Below, one piece after another: positions 17,518 through 37,000 of a stretch of 64,000 nt of DNA. The notes beneath the pieces were generated by a model, which saw nothing but the letters and a program-made list of their open reading frames with translations, did no database searches and was not told where the DNA came from. The position numbers were made by a program, and so were the translations under genes. Numbering within the stretch: position 1 is the first letter of the stretch; each line of letters starts with the position of its first letter. Origin of the DNA: Candidatus Dormiibacterota bacterium (GTDB lineage Bacteria; Chloroflexota; Dormibacteria; Aeolococcales; Aeolococcaceae). Location: contig CAVPXI010000013.1 in assembly GCA_963709585.1 (NCBI GenBank), positions 148,148 to 212,147 on the forward strand, written 5' to 3'.

Positions 17518-17652
17518 TGACCGCCTCAGTCGCGCGTCGACGTCTCATGGACGTTTGATGGACGGCGGCGGGAGACGGGGGTCTCCCGCGCCAGTACCAC
17601 TACAGTCGGTGGGAGTTGACTTCTCGTACCGGCTAGCTGCAGCTGCGTGAGG
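17518..17652. repeat. Family B repeat copy 1 (partial)
   Basis: TCGACGTCTCATGGACGTTTGATGGACGGCGGCGGGAGACGGGGGTCTCCCGCGCCAGTACCAC. Confidence 0.9.
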
Positions 17653-17803
17653 GAGCGCCTCAACATTGAGCGGCAACGGAGTCAGCGAAGCAGTCCATGG
17701 CTCGCAATGCGATTGGTCACAGGGAGACAGTGAGCCCGTCATAGGCCAGCTCCAAATCCAGCGTCGACCTCGGCTAACCGGTCGAGCATGGGCTGGCGCC
17801 AGG

Positions 17804-18271
17804 CTACTCGGACACTTGGGTGAGCCATTCGCCAGGAACTTGTCTGGTGGCCACGTTGACGCGGTTGAAGACGTTCACGGTGGCGATCCACAAGACCAGC
17901 GCGGCTAGCGCCTTCTCGTCGTAGTGTTTGACGGCTTCGTCCCAGATCTCGTCAGGTACGGGGTCGGTGCGGTCGCTGAGCCGGGTGACGGCTTCGGTGA
18001 GGGCCAGGGCGGCACGTTCGGCGTCGGTGAAGTACGGGGTACCCCTCCAGGCGACCAGAGTGAAGAGTCGCTCATCCGTCTCGCCACCTTTTCGGGCTTT
18101 GGCCGCGGCGCCAACGCAGACGCTGCATCCGTTGATCTGGCTGGCTCGCAGGTGGACGAGGTCGAGCGTTCGCTGTGGCACGCCACCTTGTTGCACGGCC
18201 TCGTTCAGCGCTCTGATCGGGGCCATGGCCTCGGGGATGATCACGGCCGGGTTCTTCATTCGGGCTTGCAT
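17804..18271 (-). CDS. Carboxymuconolactone decarboxylase / AhpD-like protein
   Basis: LVHLRASQINGCSVC...FTDAERAALALTEAVT; RBS GAGGAGGA. Confidence 0.9.
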   Translation of the reverse strand: MQARMKNPAVIIPEAMAPIRALNEAVQQGGVPQRTLDLVHLRASQINGCSVCVGAAAKARKGGETDERLFTLVAWRGTPYFTDAERAALALTEAVTRLSDRTDPVPDEIWDEAVKHYDEKALAALVLWIATVNVFNRVNVATRQVPGEWLTQVSE

Positions 18272-18353
18272 GACGGTGTTCCTCCTCGATGTCGATATCG
18301 TCTGCTTAGGTGCGATCGGGCGATTCGGGCATACGCTCGAGGCCGGCAAGCCT

Positions 18354-19196
18354 CTAGCCGCCGTTGACCCGCGACGCGTGGTCTAGGTCGCTGCGGTCCT
18401 CCTGCAGTCGCGCGGTCAGGAACTGGTCCCAGGTCTTGGTTCCGACCGTGAGCAGGGATGACGGAAGCAGAGCGCCCTGACGCACAGCCTTGCTTCCGGG
18501 TATCCGCACGGGAACCACCCACCGGTGGCGATGGGTGGCCGTCAGGTAGCTGCGAAACAGGTCCACCCAACTCGATACTTGCGGTCCGGCCATGTCCGGG
18601 GCGCGGCCGGCGGGCTCACCGAGGGCGAACTCGACGAGACGGGCCGCGACCTCGCCGGGATCGACCGGCTGGACACGAAAGCCAGCCGGCACCGGTGACA
18701 CCACTGGGAATTTCGATAGTTTCCGGGAATTGTCGAAGCAATAGTCGTAGAACTGCGTGACCCGAAGGATCGTCCACGGTAGGCCGCTGTTCTCCACGAT
18801 CCGCTCGACCTCGAGCTTGGCCTTCACGTATCCCCATGACGCGATCTGGTCGATGCCAACGATGGACGGCTGCACGAAGTGCGGAGAGCCGGTCCGGGTC
18901 GCCACCGTCACCAGATTCCTGGTCGCGTCCGCGTCGCCCTTCGTGCTGGTCGCGCAATGGATGATCGCCCCGACGCCGCTCACGGCCGGATCGATGCCGA
19001 CGCCCCGCCGGAGATCTCCGATGAAGAACGTGACCTGGGGCAGCGTGTCGCGCTGGTGGCGGGCGAGCACACGCACCTCGCAGTCGGCGTCGACCAGCCG
19101 GGCAACGACAAGTCGTCCCAGGCGGCCGGTGCCACCCGTGACGAGGACGGTCGATGTCATCTGATCGACTCCGGCGGCTTCGAGCACACGCGTCAT
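18354..19196 (-). CDS. NAD(P)H-binding NmrA-like/atypical SDR protein
   Basis: VLVTGGTGRLG Rossmann motif, YVKAK. Confidence 0.85.
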   Translation of the reverse strand: MTRVLEAAGVDQMTSTVLVTGGTGRLGRLVVARLVDADCEVRVLARHQRDTLPQVTFFIGDLRRGVGIDPAVSGVGAIIHCATSTKGDADATRNLVTVATRTGSPHFVQPSIVGIDQIASWGYVKAKLEVERIVENSGLPWTILRVTQFYDYCFDNSRKLSKFPVVSPVPAGFRVQPVDPGEVAARLVEFALGEPAGRAPDMAGPQVSSWVDLFRSYLTATHRHRWVVPVRIPGSKAVRQGALLPSSLLTVGTKTWDQFLTARLQEDRSDLDHASRVNGG

Positions 19197-19269
19197 CCCA
19201 GGCTCCTTGTCACACTTGCTGTGTTTCGTTCGTCACTCCTATGACGGATGGCGACAGAAGAATGTGACG

Positions 19270-20148
19270 ATGGTTGAAACCGATGGGCTGACGGAGCGGT
19301 TCGAGGCCAGCCGGCCCCGGCTGCGGGCGGTGGCCTCCCGCATGCTTGGCTCCCACGCCGACGCGGACGACGCCGTCCAGGAGACGTGGCTGCGGCTTGA
19401 CCGTACCGACGCCGGTGCGGTGGAGAACCTCAGCGGGTGGCTGACCACGGTCGTCGCGAGGGTGTGCCTAGACCAGCTGCGCGCCCGACGGTTACGGCGC
19501 GAAGACGCCGCAGGCGACCAGCTTCCAGACGAAATCGTGGGCATCGCGGACGACTTCGACCCAGAACAGCAGGCTCTCCTTGCCGAGTCAGTCGGGTCCG
19601 CATTGCTCGTGGTGCTTGACATGCTGGCTCCAACCGAGCGCGTTGTGTTCGTGCTGCACGACATCTTCGCGATGCCGTTCGACGAAATCGGCCCCATCGT
19701 CGGGCGATCGTCGGGCGCGGCACGGCAGATCGCCAGTCGGGCCCGGCGCCGCCTGCAAGGCGCGGACAACGTTGCCGACCTCGACCTCACCCGCGGTCGG
19801 GAGGTTGCCGCCGCGTTTCTTGCTGCCTCCCGCGCGGGCAACTTCGACGCCCTGCTGAGCTTGCTCGATCCCGACGTTGTGGTCCGGTCAGATGACACCC
19901 CCATCCGGGGGGGACGAGCCAAGCCGACGGCCGAGGGCGCCGTAGCTGTAGCCACATGGTTCTCGAAAGGGGCGAAGGGACTCCAAGGCGCGGTCATCGA
20001 CAGCGCGGCCGGCATCGTCTGGGCTCCGGGCGGACGGCTTCGGGGTGTGCTCGGCCTGACAATCACGGACGGCAAAATCGTCGAGATCAACCTGATCGCA
20101 GACCCCGAGCGCATCCGCAAGTTCGACATTGTGTTCGTGGACGGATAA
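19270..20148 (+). CDS. ECF41 (SigJ-like) sigma factor with SnoaL extension
   Basis: RLRAVASRMLGSHADADDAVQETWLR, ARQIASRARRR, LLDPDVVVRSD. Divergent from CMD and NAD(P)H-binding genes, the usual ECF41 context. Confidence 0.9.
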   Translation: MVETDGLTERFEASRPRLRAVASRMLGSHADADDAVQETWLRLDRTDAGAVENLSGWLTTVVARVCLDQLRARRLRREDAAGDQLPDEIVGIADDFDPEQQALLAESVGSALLVVLDMLAPTERVVFVLHDIFAMPFDEIGPIVGRSSGAARQIASRARRRLQGADNVADLDLTRGREVAAAFLAASRAGNFDALLSLLDPDVVVRSDDTPIRGGRAKPTAEGAVAVATWFSKGAKGLQGAVIDSAAGIVWAPGGRLRGVLGLTITDGKIVEINLIADPERIRKFDIVFVDG

Positions 20149-20232
20149 CCGCAGTCGAGACATCGACACTGTCTGCTGAACACAAACGGACGCAGCTGCC
20201 GTAGCCGAGCTCTGTAGACGCATTGTCGCGGG

Positions 20233-21706
20233 TCAGCGACCTCCGTCAGCAATGGACCGCGCTGCACGGCACTCGCACTCCTCGGGGCAGTCCATGAGCA
20301 GTACGCGCGACGTGGCGCTGAGGAAGTTGTACTGCCAGTGGAAGCCGCTCTGAGGTGCGACGCCAAGAAGTTCCTGTACAACAATCGACGCGCCCACAAC
20401 GCCGGCAAGCCCGTTGACAAAGGGAGCCGCCCCGACGAAGTCACCGCCGGTTCCGCCCAGGCTGGACCGCGTGATGTAGCCGCAGATGAGTGTACTCGCA
20501 CGTCGAGCGTCCTCAAGGTTCTGGCGATGGACGGCCGGAGCAGCCGCGATGTCATCTTCTGAGATGGGCTGGTTGTACGAACTCGGTGATGCGCTCAGGC
20601 CGAAGGCCAGTCTGTTGTGCGACACGGGCAGGATAGGACACCGCGTCTGGGGGAGCCGTGTGCGCACCGAGGAGGCACTGGCCACCCTCTCCGGCCCTCC
20701 AAAGATGGACCTGGGCGGTTGTTCCGCCTGCAGCCATGTCAACAATGGTGTGAGGCCAGAGTTGCTGTATCGCATGTCTTGGTAGGGCCTCGTCGAAACC
20801 AGTGATGACCAGTGGTGGAAGCGGAAGACTCCAATCCCTGATCCTGGGGATGAAGAGATCCAACTCCTCCGTGTGTGGTGTGACGTCGAACCTGTGCAAG
20901 GCTCGCTTGATCAGCTGCGTCTTCTCGGTGCCGAAGTCGCCGGCGCAAACGAGCGCGTACGCGCCCCAGTTTTCAGGCCCAACGACCTCTCGATCGACGG
21001 TCAACAGAACGCCGGCGAGAGGAAGTTCCGATATCGCGGCTGCCCAGCCATTGCCCACTCCTCCACAACCAGCCAGCAAACCGTCAAGGTCCGGAATCGG
21101 TATAGAGAGAGGGAAACCCGTATCGAAGGCGCCAAGCGGGCCCGACTGGCCGGACAGGAGAGACAACTCGCGCTCCCGCTGGACGGGCGGGTGGCCGATT
21201 AAGCGAAGAAAGGTTTCCGCCGCAGCGAGACAGGCCGCACCCATTGCACCAAGAGCGTTGACGGGTTCGGGGCTCCATGGCAATCGAACTGCCTCGGCGA
21301 GGGTCGCGGCGATCCTAGCAACCCAGCCCGTCGAGTTCACGGTGATGTGCTCCGGCCCGACCTGACTGACCGTGCCTACGGTGATGACGACGTCGGCATT
21401 GGTTTCGGCGACGTCGTTGATGGTGCTGGCGTGCACACCGTCGGTGATTGCGACGGCAAGCGCGGCACACTGCTCGGCAAGGCGAGGGTTCCCCGCCGAG
21501 ACGCGGACATTAGGGCAGAACCGGAGCAATTGATTAACGAGGGTGCGCACCAGGACGTGGGCGCTTGGGTCATTTTCGAGCAGGGAATCCAGTCGGACAA
21601 GAACCGTCGATGCGGTGAGGCGAGCGTCAATGTCGTCCTCGGATTCGTGCTGAAGACCAGCTCCGAGCCGTACTGGACGGCTATCAATTCGACTGCTATC
21701 GGCCAC
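20233..21706 (-). CDS. E1-like ThiF-family activating enzyme with N-terminal inactive adenylation-like domain (frameshift near 20580)
   Basis: NALGAMGAACLAAAETF (inactive half), GCGGVG nucleotide loop, VDREVVGPEN, GFD. The other frame continues ICGY (candidate catalytic Cys), APFVNGLAGV and terminal CPEECEC. GTG start 1 nt after the JAB stop. Confidence 0.85.
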
Positions 21707-21707
21707 G

Positions 21708-22256
21708 TCACACGTTCGCGATGCTTGATGCATCGGCGCGCTGTACCTCGACGGGGCCAGCGGGCGACGTACCACCGATGCGGACCCTGACTGCCAGCTC
21801 TGGTTTTGCGAGATGCCTGTAGTCGCCTGCTTCCCAGACGTACCAGCCCCATGCCTGTGGATCGAGTTCGGCACCGCGACGACCGATGACGACCGCGAGC
21901 ACACCGGGCGCCTTGATACTGTGGGTTCGGTCGCGGGGCGAAAGCTTCGCCGGGCTACCCCTACCGTGTGTGTGGCACACACCGAGGAGACTCATCCCGC
22001 GCGGCTCAGCCCATCGCGCCACTGTGGCGAAGACCTCTGGCGCAACACGCCAGTAGAAGGGGTGCTCTTCGACACCCGCGCCGTGGGGGAAGACCACGGC
22101 CTGTACAACCGCTCGCTCCGCCCGAGAGCCGAGCCAGAAAACGCCGGCCTCGCATCCGACCAAGCCGGCATCTCGCACAGCCGCGAGGGTGGCTTCGACG
22201 GCCTCAGCAGGGACGACCCAGGATTCAATGCCTGGATACGGATCGATCTCTGTCAA
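21708..22256 (-). CDS. JAB/MPN+ metallopeptidase
   Basis: Upstream Glu (CEAGVFWLG) and HTHGRGSPAKLSPRD matching the JAMM HxH..S-x2-D motif; TTGA overlap with the Ubl stop. Confidence 0.85.
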   Translation of the reverse strand: MTEIDPYPGIESWVVPAEAVEATLAAVRDAGLVGCEAGVFWLGSRAERAVVQAVVFPHGAGVEEHPFYWRVAPEVFATVARWAEPRGMSLLGVCHTHGRGSPAKLSPRDRTHSIKAPGVLAVVIGRRGAELDPQAWGWYVWEAGDYRHLAKPELAVRVRIGGTSPAGPVEVQRADASSIANV

Positions 22257-22588
22257 TCGACCGTACCACCAGGCGTGATCTCTTCGACCAAGTCGAAGTG
22301 CAGCTCATGCTGTTCGTCACCATGGCGATCAGCCAACTGGTCCAGTGTCTCCTCAAGGTTGGTGATCCTCATCCCGCCGATAACGAGGAAGTACCGATAC
22401 GTGTCTCGCTCCTGCCGGTCGCGGACGCCAAAAAAGGCCATTGCCTCCTCGCGAACCACTCCCACGTGCGTGGGCGGCGGGTAGGCGTGGTGAAAGGGGC
22501 GGGCAGCCGGGAGGTACGACACTTTGGCCTCGATTTCCCGTGGATGCTCGCTCGGCGTGCTGTTGTCGGTCGGGTTGGTAACGGTCAT
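22253..22588 (-). CDS. Ubiquitin-like (beta-grasp) protein ending ...ITPGG-TVD
   Basis: 111 aa, GGAGG RBS; strand-strand-helix-strand pattern (IEAKVSY, PFHHAY, VGVVREEAMAFFG, YFLVIGG, LHFDLVEE); di-glycine plus 3-residue extension; operon with JAB and E1. Fold is inferred. Confidence 0.7.
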   Translation of the reverse strand: MTVTNPTDNSTPSEHPREIEAKVSYLPAARPFHHAYPPPTHVGVVREEAMAFFGVRDRQERDTYRYFLVIGGMRITNLEETLDQLADRHGDEQHELHFDLVEEITPGGTVD

Positions 22589-22622
22589 GGTGGCCTCCTC
22601 CAACGGCTCTTCGTGGTAGTCT

Positions 22623-22661
22623 TGTTACGGGAAATGGTGTACTGCTGGAAATATCGTAACA
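22623..22661. promoter_or_regulatory. Candidate operator in the divergent Ubl/XRE intergenic region
   Basis: Inverted repeat TGTTACG-N25-CGTAACA enclosing two GGAAAT boxes in a lower-GC patch. Confidence 0.35.
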
Positions 22662-22737
22662 GACGGGGCTGCTCGGTTGCAAACCCCTGGGTCCGAGCGC
22701 AAACTGCGTAACTCGAAGCCACCGGAGGAGAGACGCC

Positions 22738-23928
22738 ATGGATGCCCCGTTAGTCGACGCGCGCACTGAGGCCGGGTACTCGCAGGAGGACGTCGCCGCG
22801 GCTCTCGGGGTGAGTCGAGCGATGGTCAGTTATTGGGAATCCGGCAAGCGGGAGCCCAATGACCGTCAACTCGTCGCACTTGCTCGCCTCTACCGACTGC
22901 CCGTTGGCGTGCTGCTTGGGACGGAACCTCTACCTAGTCGGGCGGACGAGGCGCGAATGCTGTTCCGAGGCGCCGAGAACGAGCTCGCAGGCGAAGCGAA
23001 GACCGGAGTGGCCGAGTTTGTCCAGTTTCTGGACAACTACGCCAGGCTGGCCAAGGCGCTGGGTTTTGAAATCCGCGGATTAGCGCAAAGCCCGTTCCTC
23101 ATGAGGATCGGATATGAGACGGCCGAAGATGCGCGCCGGAAGGCAGAGGAAGTCCGAGCGCATTTGCGATTGGCTATGGGACCCATTAGCGACATCGACG
23201 CCGTGGCTGAGCTTCTCGGAATAACAGTCTTTCGAGCTGCACTCGGAGAAGACCTGACGCACGGACTATCGGGGGCGTTCTTCGCGCACCCCGAGGTCGG
23301 ATTCTCGATACTCGTAAATCTGCAGATGACGCCGGGCCGCAGACGTTTTACCGTCGCTCATGAGATAGCACACGCCTTGTTCCATAGTCGTTCCGATAGG
23401 TACGTATTGTCACGGCCCGCAGGTGGCGCCAAGGAGCAGTTCGCGGACGCGTTTGCCGGCGAATTCCTGATGCCGAGTGAGGGTGTTCGCCGGGTCATGG
23501 AAGAACAGGGAGTAGGGCCACGCGTCACCGACCCCGCGGTCGTGATCCACCTACAGCGCTACTTCAATGTGTCCTACCCGACGGCATTGGTCCGCCTGCT
23601 GAAGGCGAAGTTCATCGATCGCGACCATTTTGACCAGTTCAAAGACCTTCGACCCGTCCTTTTCGCTCAAGCACTCGGCTATGAGGTTGGGGACGACGAG
23701 TTCGGTCAGAAGCCGGAGGAATGGCGACTCCGCAGATACCCTCGTCGCTTCTTAGCGCTCATTCGGCAGGGCGTCCGGAGCGGGAAGATTTCGGCCGGCT
23801 CAGCCGCGAGTCTGGCAGGACTGTCGCTGGACGATGTCGAAGAGCTTTGCATGGACCAGCAGCAAAGCGTTGCGTCCCGGGAGATCAAGGAATACCAAGA
23901 CAGCGGTGTCTTTGCCGCCGCCGTTTAG
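22738..23928 (+). CDS. XRE-family HTH fused to ImmA/IrrE Zn-metallopeptidase
   Basis: SQEDVAAALGVSRAMVSYWESGKREP HTH; RRRFTVAHEIAH (HExxH); EQFADAFAGEFLMP; YFNVSY. Confidence 0.92.
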   Translation: MDAPLVDARTEAGYSQEDVAAALGVSRAMVSYWESGKREPNDRQLVALARLYRLPVGVLLGTEPLPSRADEARMLFRGAENELAGEAKTGVAEFVQFLDNYARLAKALGFEIRGLAQSPFLMRIGYETAEDARRKAEEVRAHLRLAMGPISDIDAVAELLGITVFRAALGEDLTHGLSGAFFAHPEVGFSILVNLQMTPGRRRFTVAHEIAHALFHSRSDRYVLSRPAGGAKEQFADAFAGEFLMPSEGVRRVMEEQGVGPRVTDPAVVIHLQRYFNVSYPTALVRLLKAKFIDRDHFDQFKDLRPVLFAQALGYEVGDDEFGQKPEEWRLRRYPRRFLALIRQGVRSGKISAGSAASLAGLSLDDVEELCMDQQQSVASREIKEYQDSGVFAAAV

Positions 23929-24571
23929 GACGATCGTTGATACGAACGTCCTGCGCTATTTCTTGTTCGTCGACCGTACGAGCATTCTGGCAACGGTGCT
24001 TGGTCGACCCATGGGGGTTCCGCGGATAGTCTACGATCCGGATGAAGGCGAGCCCCCCGAGAATGCGATGAGTGAAATACGTCGCAGCATCTTGGTGCAG
24101 CGTGAGCGGGGCGATGAGTTGACACGATCCGATGAGGGACGCGCCGAGGCGCGGCGCAATGCGTCCAGGTTGTCGTCGATCGATGCGCTGCTCGGCAACG
24201 GAGACGTCGTCACTGTAGACATGTCACGGGAGGAGCGAGAGCTGTTTGCGGCGCTGACTGATCACAATCGCGCGGGTGACTTTGGTCTCAAGATCGCGCT
24301 TGGGCATGGCGAGGCAGCATGTGTTGCGATTGCAGTCGAGAGGAGTGTCATCCTCGCCACCAACGATGCGGACGCTTTGACCGCGTACGAGCGGCTTGCA
24401 CCAACGGGCGCTCACGCGCGAATTCGAGGTGCGCTCAGAGACGCGGCAGAAGGCGGCCTAATTTCTCGTGCCACCGCAAATGCTACTCATATTGAAATGT
24501 CACGTCTCGGGCTGTGGGATATCGAGCTTCCGTTCTCCCTCGGAGAGTTGGAGGATGATTCCGGCATATGA
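23906..24571 (+). CDS. PIN-domain-like nuclease
   Basis: IVDTNVL, LGHGEAACVAIA, LATNDADA acidic motifs; overlaps the XRE-ImmA 3' end. Start approximate. Confidence 0.75.
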   Translation: MSLPPPFRTIVDTNVLRYFLFVDRTSILATVLGRPMGVPRIVYDPDEGEPPENAMSEIRRSILVQRERGDELTRSDEGRAEARRNASRLSSIDALLGNGDVVTVDMSREERELFAALTDHNRAGDFGLKIALGHGEAACVAIAVERSVILATNDADALTAYERLAPTGAHARIRGALRDAAEGGLISRATANATHIEMSRLGLWDIELPFSLGELEDDSGI

Positions 24572-24924
24572 CACGCTGCGTTTGTGTGGACGGTGCGTTT
24601 CTTCGCGCGGCTTGCGGCCAGGCGCGGGGCAAGTCGGGTGGGCTGAGGCGTAGACGAATAGTTTTGCCGAGAAGTTGGAGGCTCGTTGCAACCGACGATG
24701 GTGCAGCGTATGCGTATGCGGCGCAGCGTCTGGGATCGCTTGAGTGTTGTTGACACCGTCGAGCTCTTGAGGCGGCTATTGAGTACGTAGGAGGCTCTTG
24801 CGTGGCGTGCCGGCCGATCGAACCGGCCAACATCGCTTTCGCCGAGTTACTTGCGCTCGCCACGCGTCTGCGCGACCAACGCTAGCCTCGGCGATCTCAG
24901 CGGCCCGACCGGTGGGACCGGAGG

Positions 24925-25827
24925 CTATTGGTCCATCGACGGTAGGATGGCCACGTCAAGTGACGCGCTCCTCGTGGCCGCGCGAGCTCCAAGTCTCGGC
25001 GGTATCCAAATGCCCCGGCGTTGCCAGTTTGCGTTGGGGAGCGCGGTCCGTGCCAGTTCTTCGAACTCGCGGTCGTCGAACGACCGTTGCGGGGGCCATT
25101 CGATTTGGTGTAGCCCGGAGGGCCAGATCCGCACCAACCCCGGGGACATGGTCATGACCTGGGCATCCGCGGGACGCAGGGTGTGGCCCAGGATGTGGAA
25201 CGCCACGGTGCCAATGCGCAGCCCAACCCAGTATCGGTGCTCTTCAGCAGCCGGCTGCAACGAACCGGAACCCTCGACGGAGTAAGCGACGAGGTATGCG
25301 AGGCCGACTGACGGTCCTCGGTGCTTGGCCAGCCACACCGTGAGCTGCTCGGGGAGGACATATGGCCGCAGGTCACGTGCGTTGTAGATAGCGCTGATGT
25401 GCTCACGCGGTATGGGCAGCCCAAGTTTGCGGTTCGCGCCCTGGAGCATGATCGCGGTCTTGGCCGCCCAAAAGCCCAAGGTTCGCAACTCCGCTACGCC
25501 GATCGGCAGCGCGATCGGGCCGAGCATGGGCCGCAATATCGGGATGGTGTCGTCCTCGAGGCGGTGCATCCAGCCCGTGTTGCACTCATGGCACACAATC
25601 GGCAAGCGCAAGCGCAGGCTCTGCTTGGTGTCGATGCGAACGCGCTTCGGGTCGTCGAGAAGCCCTGCCCGGCGTTTCACCACACCGCGTCCGTAGAGCT
25701 CCGCGAGGCGCTTGAGCAGCCAACTGGGAATGACATCCTCACGACTGTTGGCTATGCCTCCGCACCAAGTGCAGCGCGTTCGCGGCCTCGGCTGTCGCGT
25801 TGGCCGCGGCATTGCGCCTTCAGTCAT
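24925..25827 (-). CDS. HNH-like Zn-finger protein
   Basis: CTWC...SREDVIPSWL...VCHECNTGWMHRLE resembles the HNH CxxC..EHVIP..CxxCN pattern. Confidence 0.65.
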   Translation of the reverse strand: MTEGAMPRPTRQPRPRTRCTWCGGIANSREDVIPSWLLKRLAELYGRGVVKRRAGLLDDPKRVRIDTKQSLRLRLPIVCHECNTGWMHRLEDDTIPILRPMLGPIALPIGVAELRTLGFWAAKTAIMLQGANRKLGLPIPREHISAIYNARDLRPYVLPEQLTVWLAKHRGPSVGLAYLVAYSVEGSGSLQPAAEEHRYWVGLRIGTVAFHILGHTLRPADAQVMTMSPGLVRIWPSGLHQIEWPPQRSFDDREFEELARTALPNANWQRRGIWIPPRLGARAATRSASLDVAILPSMDQ

Positions 25828-26038
25828 ATTCGATGTGGCTGACCATGTGCAGATGGCGAAATGCGCTGACCATTCCCCCGCCGGTGGTCAGCAGATTTGT
25901 CCAGCAGGAGGTCGCGCAGCCGCGTGCATGGCGTCCGAGAAAGGCCGAGTCACACTGAACCGTGTCCGTACCGTCTTCGGGTGATTTGGCAAATGGCATA
26001 CTTGCAAACTCATCACTAAGAAGAGGGGTATCTAAGTC

Positions 26039-26664: not shown

Positions 26665-26679
26665 TGAAGCGGACTCATG

Positions 26680-27546: not shown

Positions 27547-27565
27547 GCAGATCCACGCGGGGTTT

Positions 27566-27963: not shown

Positions 27964-28048
27964 CGGTGTCGCTCGGGGACGTTGGTAGTCCTTCAGAATC
28001 GTCGGGCCGCGGACCTACCCCGCGACGACCCGGGATCGGTCTCCGGTG

Positions 28049-29050: not shown

Positions 29051-30113
29051 TACCCTTCCGATGCTCGGTGATCCGAGCCGTAGTGACGAGAGCTACCTGT
29101 CGATGTGGGGTCGGCGACGGTGCGAGAGGAGCCCCTGCCCCACTCTGTAATCCAGCGCATCACCTCACCTCACTTGTAGAAGCGCGACCATGAGGATCGT
29201 TTGCTTTGGTCCCGTGCGCAACAAATTCATGCAGCTCATCTCCTTTTGTGCTGGCGATTGAACCGGCTACTAGCGTCAGCGCCGCCCCGTACAAGACTTT
29301 GGGCACTCGCGGCTGCCTCCGGAAGCCCCCGATCTCGCAGGGCGAGCCACTCATGCAACGGAGACAGCGTTCCGGCGCCAATCGCCGCTCGTGAGGTCGC
29401 GATGGACTGCGCCGCGGCTTGAATCGATCCTCCGACCGCCGTAAACACAAAGGCGATCACGGTGCTTACTAGGAAACGCTGCCTCTCAAGCCGCATGAAC
29501 TCACCTCCTCGCCAGCAGGTGGCCGAGCATGGACCGTTGGAAGCAGGAATGCAACCAGAGGCTGGCGGCTCCTTACACTCGACACCCTCGCGACTGCTTC
29601 GAGAGACTCACGGGGGCTCGCGGTTCAGATCCTCGACAGCGCCAGCCGTGAGGCCTCCCGACGTCCGGGTGGCGGCGAACGGCCCAACGACCGCCGTCCG
29701 CCGGTGAGAGCCTGGCCGCGCCCAGCCGAGCACTGTCCGGCGAGAGTTCGTAGCACCCAGGCCGTCGGGCGGCCGCGCCGCTATCAACCGGACGCTGATC
29801 ATCGCGGCAAGAGCAGCAAGACTCGAGACCGCCCCGAAAACGAATCGTTTCAAAGCTGGCCTCGAGGGTCTGCCGTCCTCCCTCGAGGAGGCGATAGAGA
29901 GATGAGCACTGACCTCCCCCGACCTCGGGCCCGGGATCGACCATAGCCGAGCCCTTGACATCACGCCCCTCTCCATAGAAAGCGTCGCTCGCCTGCGCGT
30001 GGCGGATCTGCCTGAGGAGCGTCGACGAGGTTGTGTGTGGTAGTTGTCCGCGTTGCGCCAGTAGGTGAAGTCTGGGCGGGCAGCCGATACCGACAGTCAT
30101 CCGGCCAACGACC

Positions 30114-30225
30114 GGACGCGTCATGGACGTCTGATAGACGGGGCGGCGGGAGACGGGGGTCTCCCGCGCGAGTACCACCGGAGCGCACGGAATTGATTTC
30201 TCTTATCGCTTCGGTGCGGCTGCGT
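30114..30225. repeat. Family B repeat copy 3 (partial)
   Basis: GGACGCGTCATGGACGTCTGATAGACGGGGCGGCGGGAGACGGGGGTCTCCCGCGCGAGTACCACC...TTGATTTCTCTTATCG. Confidence 0.9.
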
Positions 30226-30262
30226 AGGTAGGATCCAGCGCCTTCCCGCAGGCGTAGCGCGC

Positions 30263-30718
30263 TCAGCCGAGATGGCGAAACGGCTCCGGGATGTACCCAG
30301 ACAAGAGACCGCGCCATTCATCGCTGAGTATGTCGCGGACAACCCGGTCATCATTTGCGAGCCAGGCTAAGTGCCGCAGCCCATGCTCCAACACCTGCTG
30401 ATGGCCGACCGAGACAGGCGCGCTCGTGGCCGCACCGCGTGCAAGGTCGGTGCGGCCCACGGGTATGCCTCGGAGTCCTGGCGCCTGGCCGTCACGATTC
30501 ACCACCACAAAGCTGAGAATCACCGAACCGCGCGCGCGACGCCAAGAGGTCGAGTGCACGAGCAGCGGCGGACCCATGAGGTTGCTGGCCAGCCTGGCGA
30601 CCACTTCGACGGGATCTTCGTCGGCTCCCACCTCGATGTACCAAGGGTCGGGCCCGCACGGAGCGGCGAGCTCAGGCACGCCTTCGCGCAAGCGCACCAC
30701 GAAAACCTCCGCTTGCAC
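30263..30718 (-). CDS. Hypothetical protein
   Basis: Globular, protein-like composition (VHSTSWR, VLEHGLRHLAWL); 5' end uncertain. Confidence 0.6.
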   Translation of the reverse strand: MQAEVFVVRLREGVPELAAPCGPDPWYIEVGADEDPVEVVARLASNLMGPPLLVHSTSWRRARGSVILSFVVVNRDGQAPGLRGIPVGRTDLARGAATSAPVSVGHQQVLEHGLRHLAWLANDDRVVRDILSDEWRGLLSGYIPEPFRHLG

Positions 30719-30949
30719 AGGGCCCTCGTTCGCCCAGGCGGGAGGGGACTGTTCGGTCAGGCGGGGCGAGCCATCGCGAGCACCTGCTCGGGGGTCACTT
30801 CCATGTTGTGGGCGTCGCGTCCGTGCTTTTGAACGGTCGGTACAAGATCGGCTTCATGCCCTCAGGCTTCAAAGCCGCAATCACAGCGAACGACTAGATC
30901 GACGGGCTCGCTCCGTTCGGCCGCCAATTGCACCTCCATCGCGAGCGTA

Positions 30950-31249
30950 TCACCACTGGTTCCACCCTGAATCGAGCGACGTAGTCACCTCGGGTGCGCC
31001 CTCGAACAGCCTCCCGAAGAAGTCCTGGATTCGCGGGTCACCAGCGAACGCCTCCGCTTGGTCGGCGCTCTGCCAGACATCGATGCCCAAGAAATCCCGC
31101 TCGTCCCCCGGGTTGAGAAGAACTGCATGCGAGATGTCGCCGGCCTGGACGGCCATGTCGTTTGTAGCCCCGGTGACCTGGTCGTGGACCGCCCGCATGG
31201 ATTTGATGTCGCCCTTGAGCCGGCCTCGGATCGTGATCGTGACTGCCAT
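30950..31249 (-). CDS. Small dimeric alpha+beta barrel (ABM-like) protein
   Basis: 99 aa; GDISHAV...FLGIDVWQSADQAEAF...FFGRLFEGAPEV pattern. Confidence 0.65.
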   Translation of the reverse strand: MAVTITIRGRLKGDIKSMRAVHDQVTGATNDMAVQAGDISHAVLLNPGDERDFLGIDVWQSADQAEAFAGDPRIQDFFGRLFEGAPEVTTSLDSGWNQW

Positions 31250-31283
31250 GGGCTGACCATAGCCCGCTGAGTTTGGAGAAACT

Positions 31284-32117
31284 TTGGCGGTGTTGCGGAT
31301 CTACCTCACCGGGGAGCTCTGCCTGTGGCACGGCCACCGGCTCGTCGCCGCGGACCGCCTGCCCGGCCGGCAAGGGCGGCTCACGTTTGCGTATCTGACC
31401 AGCGAGCGGTTGCGGCCGATTCCACGCGACGAGCTAGCCGAGGTCATCTGGCCTTCGCAGCCGCCAGTCGCATACGGCATTGCGTTAAGCGCGGTTATCA
31501 GCAAGCTCAGATCGCTCCTTGTGGATCTGGGGCTTCCGCGTCGCGTTCTGGCTTCGGCCGATGGCTGTTATCACGTGTCACTGCCTCAGGATGTTTGGAT
31601 CGATACCGAGGTGGCCGTCGAGGCAGCGCATCTGGCTGAGGAGGCATGGCGATCAGGCGATCCGCGGAAGGCGTACGGACCTGCGGTGGTCGCCGCCGCA
31701 ATCCTGCGGAGACCATTCTTGCCGGGCGCCGACGGCGAATGGGTCGACGCTCGCAGGCAGATCCTGCAGCGCGCGAACCTCCGCGCGCTCGGCGTGCTCG
31801 CAGAGCTGCATTCGTGGAACAGCGAAGCCGCCCTCGCGGTACGCGCGGCCGAAGAGATGATCGCGCTCGAGCCTTTTCGCGAGAGCGGGTATGGGCTGCT
31901 GATGCGCATCCACCAGCGCAACGGCGATCGAGCTGAGGCGCTGAGGGTTTACGAGCGTTGCCGACGGCTCCTTGCCGACGAGCTCGGCGAACGGCCGGGA
32001 CCGGCGATCGAAGCTGTGCGCGCAGAAATCGCTGGCGAGGCAACTGCGGCCAAACGGCCACCGGCCCAATCATCAGCCTCCCATGAAGAAGGCCGCGGCT
32101 CCCGAGCACCCCGGTGA
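31284..32117 (+). CDS. SARP/BTAD-domain transcriptional activator
   Basis: wHTH (RDELAEVIW) and BTAD (LEPFRESGYGLLMR...ALRVYERCRRLLADELGERP). Confidence 0.9.
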   Translation: MAVLRIYLTGELCLWHGHRLVAADRLPGRQGRLTFAYLTSERLRPIPRDELAEVIWPSQPPVAYGIALSAVISKLRSLLVDLGLPRRVLASADGCYHVSLPQDVWIDTEVAVEAAHLAEEAWRSGDPRKAYGPAVVAAAILRRPFLPGADGEWVDARRQILQRANLRALGVLAELHSWNSEAALAVRAAEEMIALEPFRESGYGLLMRIHQRNGDRAEALRVYERCRRLLADELGERPGPAIEAVRAEIAGEATAAKRPPAQSSASHEEGRGSRAPR

Positions 32118-32398
32118 GTTGCTGAGTCGTCCCCGCCAGCCGGGGCGAGGCCGCTGGCCATGAGCAGCTCGTGCGCAAGCTCGGCCGGGACGCCCGGACC
32201 TGCTGTTTGCGCCAGCGTTGCGGAGCCAACGCTCAGCCGCAGCCTGATCAAGGGCGGCGAAGGGCTCTTCTTCGTTGCGGTTCCTGAAGCGGTCGTGGTC
32301 TTTGAGTGTACTTGGCCAGCGCGTTCGGGCACCAGTGCACTGATCCACACGTCGAGGCCAGACCCGAGGTAGCCGGAGCCTGTTCGGCAAAATTGAGA

Positions 32399-32589
32399 TT
32401 GGCTGTGGACGCAGGGCGAGTGGTGGACGCGTCATGGACGTCAGATGGACGGGCGGCAGGAGACGGGGGTCTCCCGCGCGAGTACCACCGGCGCGCACAG
32501 AATTGATCTCTCTTATCGGTTCGGTGCCGCTGCGTGAGGGGGTTGTTCTCAGGGAATGGAGCGATGCGGCTGCATTCGCGTTCGGGTGA
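32399..32589. repeat. Family B repeat copy 4, preceded by a degenerate tRNA-end-like stretch
   Basis: TTGGCTGTGGACGCAGG (compare TTGGCTGAGGAGCCAGG at 27521), then GTGGACGCGTCATGGACGTCAGATGGACG, hairpin and downstream block. Confidence 0.88.
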
Positions 32590-32604
32590 GCGGGTGTTCC
32601 GCGT

Positions 32605-33099
32605 TTAGACGCCGCCGCCGACGCTGTTGGTCGTGGTCCGGCGAAAGGTCGCGCGTGATGACGACGGCGACACAAGTGCGATGAAGATGACCGCGTTCAC
32701 CGTGACGGTCACGGTCCCTGGTATCGGGGTCGTGGCGATCCTGACGAACAGGACTCCGATGGCGATCCACACGACGCAGAAGAGCAGCGCGCTGATGAAC
32801 ATAGTCCGCGTCAGTAGCCACCTCGACCCCACCGTCCACAGGCCCCATCCACCCATCATGGCGATCACGATGCCGACTCCGACGACCCACCCGCCGATCG
32901 GGGGGTCGCCCGGAGGGTCGTTCACGATGCCGGGCAGGCCGCTGCCGCCGCGCAGCACGATCAAGCCGCCCACGACAAGGAGGGTGCCGAGAAGCAGCCA
33001 CCAGACACTCTCAATCCCGAGCAGCAAGCGCGCGATGGCGACGCCGCGAGGAATCGGTGCTGCCCGTGGCCGATCGGTCAACACGCTGTGCTCATCCAT
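32605..33099 (-). CDS. Four-helix membrane protein of unknown function
   Basis: Four long hydrophobic segments. Confidence 0.6.
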   Translation of the reverse strand: MDEHSVLTDRPRAAPIPRGVAIARLLLGIESVWWLLLGTLLVVGGLIVLRGGSGLPGIVNDPPGDPPIGGWVVGVGIVIAMMGGWGLWTVGSRWLLTRTMFISALLFCVVWIAIGVLFVRIATTPIPGTVTVTVNAVIFIALVSPSSSRATFRRTTTNSVGGGV

Positions 33100-33264
33100 C
33101 GCCTTAGGTTGATCCTGCGCGCGCGTACAGATCGACAGAGGTATGTGCACGAAATTCACAGGAAACCGTAAGGCAAGCGTAACGACCGCGCAAGGTCGCG
33201 CCCGCATAGTCCTGCTCAGTGCTGCTCGGCATCCTGCCAGGCGCCGCCCGTCGGAGGTTCAGCG

Positions 33265-35076
33265 ATGATCGCGTTCGGATACCTGGGTGACGAGCTGCGC
33301 CGTCGCTGGGGTCGAACTGTCGTGACCGCACTTGGCCTGGCCGCAGGTGTTGGTCTCGTTATGGGAATCATCGGCGTGTCCGCTGGCCTGAGTGCGGCGC
33401 AGAACCAGGCATTGTCACCGCTGTCGTCGGTCGGCACGGACATCATCGTCACCAGAACGGTGGGAGCGACGACGACAGCGGCCGCAACACCGAGCCCATC
33501 CCCCGGGGCAACCCAGGGCGGAGGCGGGGGCGGCGGCGGCTTCTTTGGCCCTGGCGCTGGTGGCGCTGGGGGCGGTGGCGGTGGCGGTGGCGGTGCCGGC
33601 CTCGGAGGTGCCTCTTCTACCATTAGCCAACTCAATACCGCCGACCAAGCGGCGTTGCTGAATGCGAACTCGTCAGTGCTGACCGATCTCGCCAAACTTG
33701 GCCCGGCAGGGACGGCATTCGTGCACGACTTCTTCGTTCCCGGGACGCTCATCACCTTCCCCCAGGTTGCTGTTCAGGATGTCGCCTCCGTTCCTGGCGT
33801 GGAATCCGCGGTACCCGGACTCTCGTTGCAGGCGATTCATGAGTCGGGGACGGTGCCGCAGATCACTGATACGGTGACCACCGGCGGACAGACGATCACA
33901 TCTGTTGAGAAGCCCGCGCCGCTCACCGCCGCCGAACAGAAGTCGGTGTCCGCCTGCATCCAGGCCGCGGGAGGCTTCACGCGGCCCTCACCGGGAGCCA
34001 CGCCAAACCCCGGGGGCGGCGGTGGGGGTCGCGGATTCGGTGCGGCTTTTACGAAGTGCCTGCCAGCCCGTTTCCAGCAGTACGAAGCCAAGGTGGTGGT
34101 GCCGACTCAGACCATCACCCGCATCCTCAACCCGCCGACCACGAACACCCAGACCAAGACCTACACCGCCGCGGCGGTGGATCCGACAAACACAACCACG
34201 GGGCTCATCACCAGCGCGCAGGTCGTGTCGGGCAGCTGGTTCTCCTCGACGCCCGCCGATGAGATTCTCGTCAACACCGCCTATGCCTCGAGCAACAGCA
34301 TCAAGGCCGGTCAGACGATGACCATCAACGGCACGGTGTACACGGTTCAAGGGTTGGTGGCCCCCACGCTCACCGGCGACGTGTCGGACCTCTACTTCGA
34401 TCTGACCACCCTGCAGTCGCTGTCGACCAACTCGTCGCGGGTCAACGAGGTCCTCGTCAAGGTGTCCAAGGCGAGCGATGTCGATGCAGTTGCCGCAGCG
34501 ATCAAGGCCAAGCTCCCCGGAGCTCAGGTGCTTACCGCGAAGTCGCTCGCCAATCAGGTCACCGGGAGTCTGGCCAACGCGCAGACCATCGCGGCCAACC
34601 TCGGGGGCGCAATGGCAGTGATCATCCTGCTCGCCGCGTTCCTCATCGCCGCCCTGCTCACCACGTCATCTGTCAGCAAGCGTGTCCGCGAGATTGGCAC
34701 GCTTCGCGCCATCGGCTGGCGCAAGGGCAGGGTCGTGCGTCAGATCATGGCCGAGACCATTGGCATCGGCATCGTTGGGGCGGTGATCGGCGTGCTCGCC
34801 GGCCTCGGCGTCGCGGAGGCCGTCAACCTCTTCGGGCCGACACTGACATCAACGACGTCGGGCTTGTCCGTTGGTGCGTCGACGGCCAGCACTCTCTTCC
34901 ATCAAACGACCACGGCGTCGACCAGCCAGTCGCTGCACCTCCAAGCGGTGATCACGATCACGACCGTGCTCCTGGGCGTCGGGTTCGCGCTCCTCGGCGG
35001 ATTGGTCGCGGGCGCGCTCGGTGGTTGGCGAGCGGCGCGACTGTCGCCTGCGATCGCCTTGCGAGATCTGGGATGA
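33265..35076 (+). CDS. MacB/FtsX-family ABC permease with Gly-rich extracytoplasmic domain
   Basis: RRWGRTVVTALG N-terminal TM, SVSKRVREIGTLRAIGW, RAARLSPAIALR. Confidence 0.92.
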   Translation: MIAFGYLGDELRRRWGRTVVTALGLAAGVGLVMGIIGVSAGLSAAQNQALSPLSSVGTDIIVTRTVGATTTAAATPSPSPGATQGGGGGGGGFFGPGAGGAGGGGGGGGGAGLGGASSTISQLNTADQAALLNANSSVLTDLAKLGPAGTAFVHDFFVPGTLITFPQVAVQDVASVPGVESAVPGLSLQAIHESGTVPQITDTVTTGGQTITSVEKPAPLTAAEQKSVSACIQAAGGFTRPSPGATPNPGGGGGGRGFGAAFTKCLPARFQQYEAKVVVPTQTITRILNPPTTNTQTKTYTAAAVDPTNTTTGLITSAQVVSGSWFSSTPADEILVNTAYASSNSIKAGQTMTINGTVYTVQGLVAPTLTGDVSDLYFDLTTLQSLSTNSSRVNEVLVKVSKASDVDAVAAAIKAKLPGAQVLTAKSLANQVTGSLANAQTIAANLGGAMAVIILLAAFLIAALLTTSSVSKRVREIGTLRAIGWRKGRVVRQIMAETIGIGIVGAVIGVLAGLGVAEAVNLFGPTLTSTTSGLSVGASTASTLFHQTTTASTSQSLHLQAVITITTVLLGVGFALLGGLVAGALGGWRAARLSPAIALRDLG

Positions 35077-35780
35077 CGACCATGGATGTGGCGACCCCTC
35101 TCTACCAGCTCCGGGGCGTCGAACGGCGCTATCTCAAGGGTGCCGCGGAAGTAGTCGCGCTCCGCGATGTCGACCTCGAAATCACCCGGGGCGAGTTCAT
35201 CTCCATCGAAGGGCCCTCCGGTTCGGGCAAGAGCACACTCCTCCAGCTCGTCGGCGCGCTCGACACGCCGAGCGCCGGAACAGTGCAATTTGACAACCAG
35301 GATCTGTCCAGAGCTCGGGATCGCGCCTTGACGGACATCCGTGCGACCCGGATCGGCTTCATCTTCCAGCAGTTCAACCTGATTCCAACCTTGAGCGCGG
35401 CCGACAACGTGGCCATCGCCGTCGACCCCCACGTCTCCAAGTCCGAGCGCCGTGTGCGAGCCCTGGAGTTGCTGGCCTCAGTCGGGCTGGCGCCGCGGGC
35501 TCATCACCTGCCTTCGCGCATGTCGGGTGGCGAGCAGCAACGTGTCGCCATTGCTCGGGCGCTCGCGAACCGTCCGGAGGTCATCGTCGCCGATGAGCCC
35601 ACGGGAAACCTCGACTCCAAAAGCGCCGCCGACGTCATGGCGCTGCTGGTGGGCTTGCGATCGGAGACAGGGGTCACGGTGATCGTCGCCACCCACGACG
35701 AGGAGGTCGCCAAGCATGCCAGCCGCCGCATTCGGATCCGCGACGGCGCCGTCGTATCCGATACAGCCGCGCAGCAATGA
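35073..35780 (+). CDS. LolD/MacB-type ABC ATP-binding protein
   Basis: GPSGSGKST, GFIFQQFNL, MSGGEQQRVAIARAL, ADEPTGNLD; ATGA overlap with the permease. Confidence 0.95.
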   Translation: MTTMDVATPLYQLRGVERRYLKGAAEVVALRDVDLEITRGEFISIEGPSGSGKSTLLQLVGALDTPSAGTVQFDNQDLSRARDRALTDIRATRIGFIFQQFNLIPTLSAADNVAIAVDPHVSKSERRVRALELLASVGLAPRAHHLPSRMSGGEQQRVAIARALANRPEVIVADEPTGNLDSKSAADVMALLVGLRSETGVTVIVATHDEEVAKHASRRIRIRDGAVVSDTAAQQ

Positions 35781-35876
35781 CCACCTGTGGCTGCTAGCCG
35801 GCTCGCTAACTACCGCCCGTACAAGCCGCTCGGGTGGCCGCGCTGGCTCCGCGACCGCGACAGAGGCTCGTGCGCC

Positions 35877-36173
35877 ATGACCGACAGACCGCGCCCGCCG
35901 ACCGAAGACGAGCGGTTGGCCTTTGATGCTGCGACGCGGGGGTCTCCCAGGGAGTTCGTCCGCATCTGTCGCCGGGCTGGCAAAGAGCCGGGACGCATGC
36001 TCGATAGGTTTGACGCGACGCCGTGGCGTTGGTTGTACTACTTCTCGCCCTCGGACTTGGTGAGCGACGGGATGCGAACCCTGCCCTACCCACCAGAGAT
36101 CCGAGCACGACTCGACGCTACTCGCAAATATGTCGAGACCCCAAAATGGCGGCGCGCGCTTCTGCATCAGTAG
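35877..36173 (+). CDS. Hypothetical protein
   Basis: 98-aa ORF with protein-like composition; no motif recognised. Confidence 0.4.
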   Translation: MTDRPRPPTEDERLAFDAATRGSPREFVRICRRAGKEPGRMLDRFDATPWRWLYYFSPSDLVSDGMRTLPYPPEIRARLDATRKYVETPKWRRALLHQ

Positions 36174-36547
36174 ACGTGGCGCCCGTTGCCGCTACGGTCA
36201 CGCGCCTGCGCGACCAGGGGGCAATACCGTCGCCGACCCGGGACCCGTCTGGCGATGCCAGCACGAGCATGGCAGCAGCGCGTGTGTGCGATGCGGCATC
36301 TGGTAACCGTTGCGCTTCATCCGCGACGTCTGGAGGTACTACCGATGACCGACACGGAGCAGACACTCGTCCTCTGGCCGTATCCGCACGCACTTTGGTT
36401 GTGGTAGACGTAGCCCTCGCGCGGGTGATAGTCGAGCGAAGTCATATCCGTGTGGAACGCTGCAACCTTGGCCACTTGCTTCCGAGTTCCCTCTCCCAGG
36501 AACGACGTCTGTTCGCTACCGCACCGAGCGGCCGGAAGCATGAGCGC

Positions 36548-36739
36548 ATGCTCACAATCACGTTGCTGCTCTGCCCGTGGTGTCACTCCACCCGGCTCGT
36601 TCTGCTGACGTACACGGTGCCAGCCGTCGAAGGGACACGCGGTCTGCCCGAGACACGGCCGAGCGCGAAGTGCGTCGCGTGCGGGCACGCGCTGCTCGCG
36701 CGAGACGTCCTCGTGCGCATGTTGCCGAGGTCAGACTAA
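36548..36739 (+). CDS. Small putative Zn-ribbon protein
   Basis: CPWC...CVAC pairs in 63 aa; ends just before family B copy 5. Confidence 0.45.
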   Translation: MLTITLLLCPWCHSTRLVLLTYTVPAVEGTRGLPETRPSAKCVACGHALLARDVLVRMLPRSD

Positions 36740-36767
36740 GTTGTGGCGATCGTGTCGGCGTTTCATT

Positions 36768-37000
36768 CCGTCTCAGGCGCAGCGTGGACGTCTCATGGAC
36801 GTTTGATTGACGGGGCGGCGGGAGACGGGGGTCTCCCGCGCCAGTACCACTACGTCTGCGGGAGTTGATTTCTCTTATCGGCTCGGTGCGGCTGCGTGAC
36901 GAGGTAGCTCGCGGGAAGGGAGCGATGCGGGTGCAGTAGCGTTCGGGCGATGATCACCGAGCCGGGTTCATCTGACACCGGCCTGGTGAGATAACGCTCG
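36768..37000. repeat. Family B repeat copy 5 (long form)
   Basis: Aligns end to end with 27566-27800, including the identical GATGATCACCGAGCCGGGTTCATCTGACACCGGCCTGGTGAGATAACGCTCG. Confidence 0.95.

Follow-up and report, generated by a model that had tools for sequence, protein, structure and literature searches.

What is the origin of a short non-coding repeat that recurs five times, always in the same orientation, between groups of apparently coherent genes? The question is raised by a 64,000-nt stretch of the genome of a Candidatus Dormiibacterota bacterium (assembly GCA_963709585.1, contig CAVPXI010000013.1, positions 148,148 to 212,147), hereafter the window, which covers C13:148148-212147 and ends where this contig, C13, ends. 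An earlier reading of the sequence alone had interpreted this element, here named family B, as the arms of a second cassette system carried inside a unit of a first one, the latter being marked by family A, a repeat of a tRNA-Pro(GGG) 3' fragment with conserved arms. Our analyses support, with a probability of roughly 0.85, the view that each family-B copy is a site resembling a phage attachment site (attP), located at the junction of tandem cassettes that are devoid of a recombinase and target the 3' end of tRNA-Gly. In this study we describe the anatomy of the element, the junctions that it forms in related genomes and soil metagenomes, and the alternative scenarios that might explain its distribution.

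Results

Family-B copies on one contig and one strand

The five copies of the window (Table 1) were recovered by repeat search, five-way alignment and a profile built from them, in the positions and the common orientation proposed by the sequence-only reading. Screening the contigs of the window's own genome (G000, 3.52 Mb in 24 contigs) with this profile identified four more copies 45 kb upstream, at C13:102684, 107047, 109612 and 110852. All nine matches (E 4.5e-40 to 2.9e-12) are on the plus strand of C13, while elsewhere in the assembly only three weak matches were obtained (E >= 2.2), and chance is therefore excluded. According to gene calls based on GC content at third codon positions (GC3), the copies are intergenic, the open reading frames (ORFs) that overlap them being shadow ORFs without a family match, and most copies sit just downstream of a minus-strand gene.

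The five-way alignment delimits a shared block of about 140 nt; copies 2 and 5, where it reaches about 235 nt, have in common a long right arm (95% identity over 145 nt). The left arm contains three TGGACG boxes at 11-bp spacing, in helical phase; a 9-4-9 inverted repeat is present in all five copies (with one mismatch in copy 4), and the AT-rich box TTGAYYTCTCKTAYCG of the right arm follows 47-48 nt further on, again in five of five. Exact motif positions thus bear out the boxes, hairpin and AT-rich box described earlier. The left arm closes the cassette to its left and the right arm opens the cassette to its right, and the polarity of the cores is that of the tRNA-Pro fragments and of the intact tRNA-Pro.

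The same reading had suggested that the copies cluster near a tRNA-Gln gene and an integrase, which did not hold: beside copy 2 there is only a 26-nt piece (27521-27546, minus strand; 88% identical to the 3' end of tRNA-Gln(CTG)), just left of the copy and in its left arm, and no integrase is linked. A similar piece recurs at C13:102645-102667, left of copy C13:102684, and the genuine tRNA-Gln, adjoined by a 317-aa integrase, is found on contig C7.

A core derived from the 3' end of tRNA-Gly

The left hairpin arm and the loop are the last 13 nt of tRNA-Gly(CCC), positions about 60-72, whose gene in G000 is located at C4:124614-124685. An exact match to these 13 nt was found in six of the nine G000 copies (BLAST rows at 100% identity); of the remaining three, C13:110852 runs on into a tRNA half, copy 4 differs by a single mismatch and C13:109612 is degenerate. 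The right arm begins with an inverted copy of the acceptor-stem bases, which forms the 9-4-9 inverted repeat with the core. Since the left hairpin arm is a tRNA 3' end, only the other half of the hairpin belongs to an arm of the element, and when G000 and 11 further genomes were aligned several left-half copies ran into the reverse complement of the tRNA instead of the right hairpin arm. The family-B hairpin is no free-standing structural motif. ARAGORN assigned the tRNA in two fetched loci (L008 and L053) to tRNA-Gly(CCC), and in some genomes the core is of the tRNA-Gly GCC type. A second cassette system with another target, as had been proposed, is therefore supported: the core of family B is a tRNA-Gly 3' end, whereas that of family A derives from tRNA-Pro(GGG).

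Junction types and mosaic arms

Further copies were sought in the 42 genomes of the genus (G000 and 41 others, with G numbers), in 16 genomes of the sister family and in loci fetched from genomes and soil metagenomes (L numbers), to which the profile was also applied. Loci L005-L033 and the G000 copies were obtained with the profile or with a 143-nt BLAST query from copy 5 (window 36768-36910), hairpin included, while L034-L106 were baited with the exact 21-nt hairpin and are thus uninformative on its conservation.

All four junction types expected for site-specific integration are present across the genus and the soil metagenomes, in consistent polarity to the tRNA. Type (a), in which tRNA-Gly keeps its resident 3' flank and lacks a family-B arm, occurs on C4 of G000 and at G043:C55. 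Type (b), the resident flank followed by core and right arm, occurs at no fewer than seven distinct loci, four of them (L010, L011, L030 and L032) from G015, G017 and G043, the others being L087, L091 and L097. Type (c), three boxes and core followed by an intact tRNA-Gly, was found at G008:C1 and G044:C123, and type (d), boxes, core and right arm, is the form seen in the window. In G044:C123, two type (d) copies precede type (c) and its intact tRNA, with cassettes of 9.8 kb and 2.8 kb between them, and L036 has a type (d) copy 4.9 kb past a type (b) junction. Eight right-arm junctions have a CCA-bearing tRNA-Gly(GCC)-type end, and in L048 a tRNA-Gly(GCC) gene lies 3.7 kb rightward of the junction, on the expected strand. 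Types (b) and (c) are the outer junctions, and type (d) is the attP-like junction between tandem neighbours, as from successive integrations at one tRNA.

Among 67 distinct copies in the fetched sequence, 29 are full, 31 consist of core and right arm only and 7 of boxes and core only. In the 31 right-arm-only copies the profile match begins at positions 33-67, with only four outside 41-51; the point at which partial copies break is the core. Separately, two core and right-arm junctions with a CCA-bearing tRNA-Gly-type end (L038 and L045, about 18.5 kb apart on one 1.42-Mb contig) face each other in inverted orientation, an arrangement not explained by simple tandem integration.

The two arms of one copy may have different nearest relatives. 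In C13 numbering, copy 102684 is 90% identical to copy 175716 in its left arm and 92% identical to copy 180555 (copy 4 of the window) in its right arm; the right arm of 175716 is 91% identical to that of copy 184915, the left arm of which is 80% identical to that of copy 107047. Each arm therefore belongs to the adjoining cassette, the cassettes being joined at the core. Rearrangement at the level of whole cassettes is seen in the FtsX/ABC cassette, which recurs together with both bordering copies (window 32423-36965) at C13:102701-107238, with 92.8% identity over 4552 nt and a different left neighbour.

A putative single-site allele in another soil sample

Fourteen sequencing runs were found, each with at most 20% of the sampled words and as contigs only, and the contigs of four public runs were mapped onto window 17300-37200. 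In one contig of run X4 (470 nt, depth 5.4), 17368-17563 continues without interruption into 36814-37088, with 3 + 3 mismatches; 40 nt fit both sides, the core lies inside that span and 19,250 nt are absent. This contig would represent an allele in which a single family-B site is left and all four cassettes are missing, with the qualification that a single short contig of this depth may be an assembly chimera across the 40-nt repeat. It fits the prediction that the entry of n cassettes into one resident site leaves n + 1 copies, here four cassettes and five copies.

No circular junction distinguishable from mosaic relatives was detected among the run contigs. The joints from 30216 back to 27701, from 17399 to 36688 and from 28629 to 34778 were not used, being ambiguous between mosaic relatives, repeats and real rearrangements. 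The second of them, present in runs X1 and X4 with two letters between its ends, suggests, for all its ambiguity, that the exchangeable portion of the left arm also includes the roughly 80-120 nt lying upstream of the boxes.

Cassettes and cargo

Each of the four cassettes of the window is bounded by family-B copies, and Pfam identified cargo genes only, so that att sites on both sides coexist with the absence of integration and transfer genes that characterizes cis-mobilizable elements (CIMEs). The module contents expected from the sequence-only reading were recovered by Pfam as an ECF sigma factor with SnoaL, JAB and DJ-1, Lipoprotein_15, BTAD/SARP, and FtsX with ABC, respectively. Part of cassette 1 (window 20552-23928) matches the defence models BilD (E1-like), BilC (JAB) and BilA (ubiquitin-like), beside an HTH-Peptidase_M78 regulator that matches RmrA/CapP models; it is likely a phage-defence module carried as cassette cargo. 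Of the cargo, the Lipoprotein_15 gene alone has a wide distribution, in which it lacks family-B borders; for the ABC cassette one relative (80% identical) was found, and the region left of copy 1 is present only in G000 among the 42 genus genomes.

The enclosing tRNA-Pro array and a third type of site

Family A comprises 17 copies along all 212 kb of C13, all on the plus strand. Six more were observed on contig C14 (C14:13459-71703), ending at a second tRNA-Pro(GGG), and the two arrays together represent about 270 kb of cassette array in the 3.5-Mb assembly. Both family-B clusters are within family-A units (window 13846 to 50651 and C13:90332 to 111201), so the proposed nesting in a unit of the first array stands. 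The upstream cluster ends in boxes plus a 43-nt tRNA-Gly 3' half (C13:110852-110945), and about 90 nt past that half comes the variant family-A left arm that also closes the unit of the window; the copy closing the upstream cluster, C13:111032-111352, is 89% identical to the variant of Table 1. A displaced tRNA-Gly fragment in the tRNA-Pro array therefore served as a landing pad, which agrees with the earlier suggestion that one array can capture a piece of another, as part of an array of the tRNA-Gly type, or the landing pad of one, now lies inside the tRNA-Pro array. The other two tRNA-Gly 3' halves of C13 (Table 1) directly adjoin family-A copies.

Such halves, of 43-47 nt from the anticodon stem to the 3' end and arranged as direct repeats, constitute a third site type. 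It goes with a family of 353-aa tyrosine integrases encoded beside tRNA-Gly(CCC) in G017 and G015 and beside tRNA-Gly(GCC) on C8 of G000. In G000, the resident flank of tRNA-Gly(CCC) retains a remnant of such an integrase gene, decayed to roughly its first 80 nt. At least three kinds of att site, namely tRNA-Pro, tRNA-Gly 47-nt and tRNA-Gly 13-nt, are interleaved on the 212-kb contig. At the head of the arrays is the tRNA, with EngA beyond, and no intI/attI/promoter platform was found there.

Other features of the window were noted. Epoxide-hydrolase genes (EHN plus alpha/beta hydrolase) flank the family-B stack inside one family-A unit (14354-15592, minus strand, and 39815-41065, plus strand), and a 78-nt repeat occurs at 14394-14471 and 16963-17040 (85% identical). 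Within 54100-61600, on the minus strand, there are two or three very large genes built of repeats of about 153 nt (51 aa) in up to 17 copies, their ORFs being of 517-865 aa, repeat-rich and surface-protein-like.

Table 1. Coordinates of family-B copies, cassettes, tRNA-derived sites and related genes (window numbering unless a contig is given; IR, inverted repeat)
Feature	Position	Strand	Details
Family-B copy 1	17518-17660	+	boxes 17537-17564; core 17569-17580; IR 17568-17589; AT-rich box 17616-17631; E 5.7e-35
Family-B copy 2	27566-27805	+	boxes 27586-27613; core 27620-27631; IR 27619-27640; AT-rich box 27665-27680; E 4.5e-40
Family-B copy 3	30097-30240	+	boxes 30113-30140; core 30147-30158; IR 30146-30167; AT-rich box 30193-30208; E 2.2e-39
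Family-B copy 4	32408-32590	+	boxes 32424-32451; core 32457-32468 (one mismatch); IR 32456-32477 (one mismatch); AT-rich box 32503-32518; E 4.3e-38
Family-B copy 5	36768-37005	+	boxes 36785-36812; core 36819-36830; IR 36818-36839; AT-rich box 36865-36880; E 4.8e-40
Cassette 1	17661-27565 (~9.9 kb)		CMD, NmrA-like, ECF sigma with SnoaL, BilD/BilC/BilA-like, HTH-Peptidase_M78 regulator, unknown ORFs, DJ-1/ThiJ; no recombinase
Cassette 2	27806-30096 (~2.3 kb)		Lipoprotein_15 secreted-repeat protein, 28049-29050 (-)
Cassette 3	30241-32407 (~2.2 kb)		151-aa ORF, ABM-like ORF, BTAD/SARP regulator 31284-32117 (+)
Cassette 4	32591-36767 (~4.2 kb)		200-aa ORF, FtsX/MacB permease, ABC ATPase
Family-A copy	13846-14211	+	tRNA-Pro 3' fragment repeat; left border of enclosing unit
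Variant family-A copy	50482-50817	+	left arm differs, tRNA-Pro fragment shared; closes the enclosing unit on the right
Intact tRNA-Pro(GGG)	63362-63436	-	anchor of enclosing family-A array
Third-site-type halves	C13:110903-110945, 66433-66476, 15338-15365; C4:127344-127390; C8:75929-75975, 82766-82813
353-aa integrase family members	L057:3103-4164; G000 C8:90733-91689

Host range

Family B was identified in 11 of the 41 other genomes of the genus and in none of the 16 genomes of the sister family. Twelve of the 18 genome-contig loci with the hairpin are labelled as Candidatus Dormibacterota metagenome-assembled genomes (MAGs), and 45 of the 47 loci fetched from soil, peat and permafrost metagenomes have a profile match at E <= 1e-3. 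A 4150-nt contig binned as Solirubrobacteraceae (L035) has a histidine-kinase gene surrounded, within 4.1 kb, by three copies of the same strand, and represents either a mis-binned Dormibacterota contig or a transfer to an actinobacterium.

Search for a recombinase

Six-frame searches of G000 gave 11 PF00589 and one PF00239 matches, all of them off C13. Pfam analysis of the 38 ORFs of window 14.3-50.3 kb returned cargo only, with no integrase or resolvase, and no integrative and conjugative element (ICE), integrative and mobilizable element (IME), relaxase or integrase was seen on C13. Nor did Pfam detect in the cassettes a replication or primase-helicase module or a tyrosine recombinase of their own, by which tycheposons are recognized. 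A few unrelated DDE or IS21-type transposase genes occur near copies, most loci being without them. Five carrier genomes were searched in six frames for the same two domains, and a single integrase came within 100 kb of a copy on the same contig, namely a 307-aa gene upstream of tRNA-Gly in G008. Elsewhere in G000 there is no second overlapping box-pair cluster of the kind that would mark an int-linked attP, and a phage or plasmid source was looked for in a viral contig collection, where the 21-nt hairpin had no exact match.

Discussion

Different evolutionary scenarios might explain these observations. In the one that we favour, a site-specific recombinase encoded elsewhere, most likely a tyrosine integrase, would bind the inverted repeat as its core sites, the three boxes serving as arm-type or excisionase-type sites, with strand exchange inside the 13-nt core. 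Three targets would be open to a circular cassette with one site, namely the tRNA-Gly 3' end, displaced fragments of this tRNA and any family-B site already resident, and recombination between two neighbouring copies would free it again. The likeliest history of the window is that a single resident site, lying inside a tRNA-Pro unit, took up the whole stack of four cassettes. As no recombinase is linked to them, the cassettes resemble CIMEs or integron cassettes served in trans.

Several results weigh against this interpretation. No PF00589 or PF00239 match was obtained in six frames on the 212-kb contig C13, 19 further ORFs searched with Pfam included no integrase or resolvase, and neither did the 143 translated ORFs flanking copies elsewhere (103 from genome and metagenome loci and 40 from genus loci), which come from about 60 loci, some overlapping, and hence represent fewer distinct proteins. 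Two candidates for the cognate enzyme were rejected: the 307-aa integrase of G008, the orthologues of which do not follow the element (4 of 12 carriers versus 12 of 30 non-carriers), and the 353-aa integrase adjacent to tRNA-Gly, whose sites have a 47-nt core and no boxes in their arm. Completeness of the MAG is 88.8%, a limit in its own right, and the recombinase gene may simply be missing from the assembly for this reason; a further limit is that gene calls come from our own GC3-based heuristic. The copies differ by 8-25% and C13:109612 is devoid of its left half-site, so that the array may be old and inert. Cassettes as family-B-bounded units were not found in other species representatives, and the single-site allele, a single short contig, is possibly an assembly artefact.

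How far the cassettes still move separates two further readings. A working integron-like platform, in which a recombinase acting in trans shuffles cassettes among tRNA 3' ends, displaced tRNA fragments and resident attP-like sites, with the tRNA-Pro, tRNA-Gly 47-nt and tRNA-Gly 13-nt types nesting over more than 200 kb, or 6-8% of the genome, is a tentative proposal that we consider rather doubtful. The copies could instead be fossil scars, each cassette having arrived with its own integrase, later deleted, and leaving inert att remnants that move at most by homologous recombination. The lack of any integrase on C13, arm identities down to 62-92%, one destroyed half-site and the decayed integrase start of about 80 nt in the tRNA-Gly flank, which shows that decay occurs, are all in line with such a loss. 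Yet some integrases should then have survived in so many genomes and samples, and none did among the 143 flanking ORFs from about 60 loci; the ABC cassette is bounded at cores in two contexts, a putative single-site allele is present in another sample, and cassettes of 1.1-2.5 kb are too small for an integrase plus cargo. On balance, we consider that the fossil scenario is possible and somewhat unlikely.

Three more alternatives were considered. A structured RNA or cis-regulatory leader or terminator at module borders, such as a small RNA, a riboswitch-like leader or an insulator, would agree with the intergenic and co-oriented copies, mostly just downstream of a minus-strand gene, and with moderately low folding energies (z-scores -1.8 to -4.1). 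It is nevertheless very improbable, because half of the hairpin is tRNA and the halves of the element occur apart, joined to tRNA or tRNA flank. Over the nine pairs in the 26 copies found without the hairpin bait, no compensatory change was observed, as opposed to 5 one-sided and 19 broken cells, and no T-run terminator or sigma-70-type promoter was called at any copy. A match to a known non-coding RNA, which the sequence-only reading had named as contrary evidence, was not obtained: Rfam gave none at the gathering score in the whole window, and around copy 2 two chance-level matches (E 0.07 and 0.88) were to eukaryotic families. A non-autonomous transposable repeat of the miniature inverted-repeat transposable element (MITE) or repetitive extragenic palindrome (REP) kind, or a plain dispersed repeat driving homologous rearrangements, would likewise be short, non-coding, multi-copy and patchy among species; such an origin has hardly any probability left given truncations at one point, a tRNA-derived core and the absence of terminal inverted repeats or target duplications. 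Scatter over the genome with target-site duplications, also anticipated as contrary evidence, is not what we see, as nine of nine copies share a single contig and strand and the rest of the 3.5-Mb assembly has none, and the nearby DDE transposases are of unrelated families and absent at most loci. Finally, in a true integron array the copies would be attC sites served by an IntI-type integrase. The co-oriented array, with one site per cassette and no recombinase of its own, recalls this arrangement, but we found no intI/attI/Pc platform, the cassettes are multigenic, on both strands and with their own regulators, and the long conserved two-armed sites of 140-235 nt with a fixed tRNA core are unlike variable attC palindromes (no dedicated attC model was run), which makes this the least probable explanation of all.

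Comparison with known systems

Tandem accretion with CIMEs is the closest concept for the cassette sites proposed here, and the tRNA islands of Prochlorococcus are the closest ecological parallel. According to PMC5704250 (citing Pavlovic et al. 2004 and Bellanger et al. 2011), CIMEs are modules that are flanked by att sites, lack genes for integration or transfer and stack in head-to-tail order at a target gene's 3' end. Common to both systems are attP-like junctions between neighbours and the capacity of new elements to enter a resident att site (PMC5704250). In contrast to CIMEs, the present array has dozens of units with no functional ICE, IME or integrase anywhere in it, at least three interleaved kinds of att site, cassettes down to 1-2.5 kb and an uncultured Dormibacterota host. 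For Prochlorococcus, the portions of the preprint that we rely on describe successive integrations of tycheposons at one tRNA, which push older elements into an island, and, as in our array, partial tRNA copies that separate neighbours, with remnants scattered through the islands (bioRxiv 10.1101/2020.12.28.424599). Tycheposons are defined, in those portions, by their own tyrosine recombinase and replication genes, whereas the units described here have neither (bioRxiv 10.1101/2020.12.28.424599). Another difference from tycheposons is that our repeat has long conserved arms beyond the partial tRNA.

In the lambda-type attP sites of tyrosine integrases that target tRNA genes, an inverted-repeat core surrounds a short stretch identical to the tRNA 3' end, and phased direct repeats in one arm are arm-type integrase or Xis sites. 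Family B likewise combines an inverted-repeat core, phased boxes in one arm and an AT-rich box as a putative bending site; unlike lambda-type sites, it has no adjoining int or xis, and its stretch of identity with the tRNA spans only 13 nt and coincides with the extreme end of the latter. Chromosomal integrons form long co-oriented arrays with one site per cassette and a recombinase outside the cassettes. These features are shared by the present array, which differs in the lack of IntI, attI and Pc, in sites that are not attC-like and in multigenic two-strand cassettes with their own regulators. Dehalococcoides belongs to a lineage related to Dormibacterota, and its ssrA islands are said to lie in tandem, each with its own serine recombinase. 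The part of PMC3146451 considered here describes site-specific integration of these islands at the tmRNA gene ssrA, and the likeness to our cassettes is that of integration at a small-RNA gene (PMC3146451). The papers retrieved on Dormibacter integrases contain, by title or abstract, nothing on such cassettes, and a wider search returned no mention of the phylum. The absence of a recombinase in any unit, the scale, the long two-armed site and the nested tRNA-derived site types set this system apart from those known.

Conclusions

Our results explain how a globally common, uncultured phylum of soil and permafrost arranges its large accessory genome, in which small swappable cassettes form stacks. 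Their cargo consists of redox, detoxification, regulator, transporter and phage-defence genes, each cassette being tagged with a tRNA-derived docking site and carrying no recombinase of its own. Annotators should be aware that repeats of this kind are recombination sites and not RNA genes, and the 13-nt core offers a simple way to screen metagenomes for circles, empty sites and the borders of cassettes. Should the cassettes still be mobile, they would represent a second route to integron-like gene capture, via lambda-type sites.

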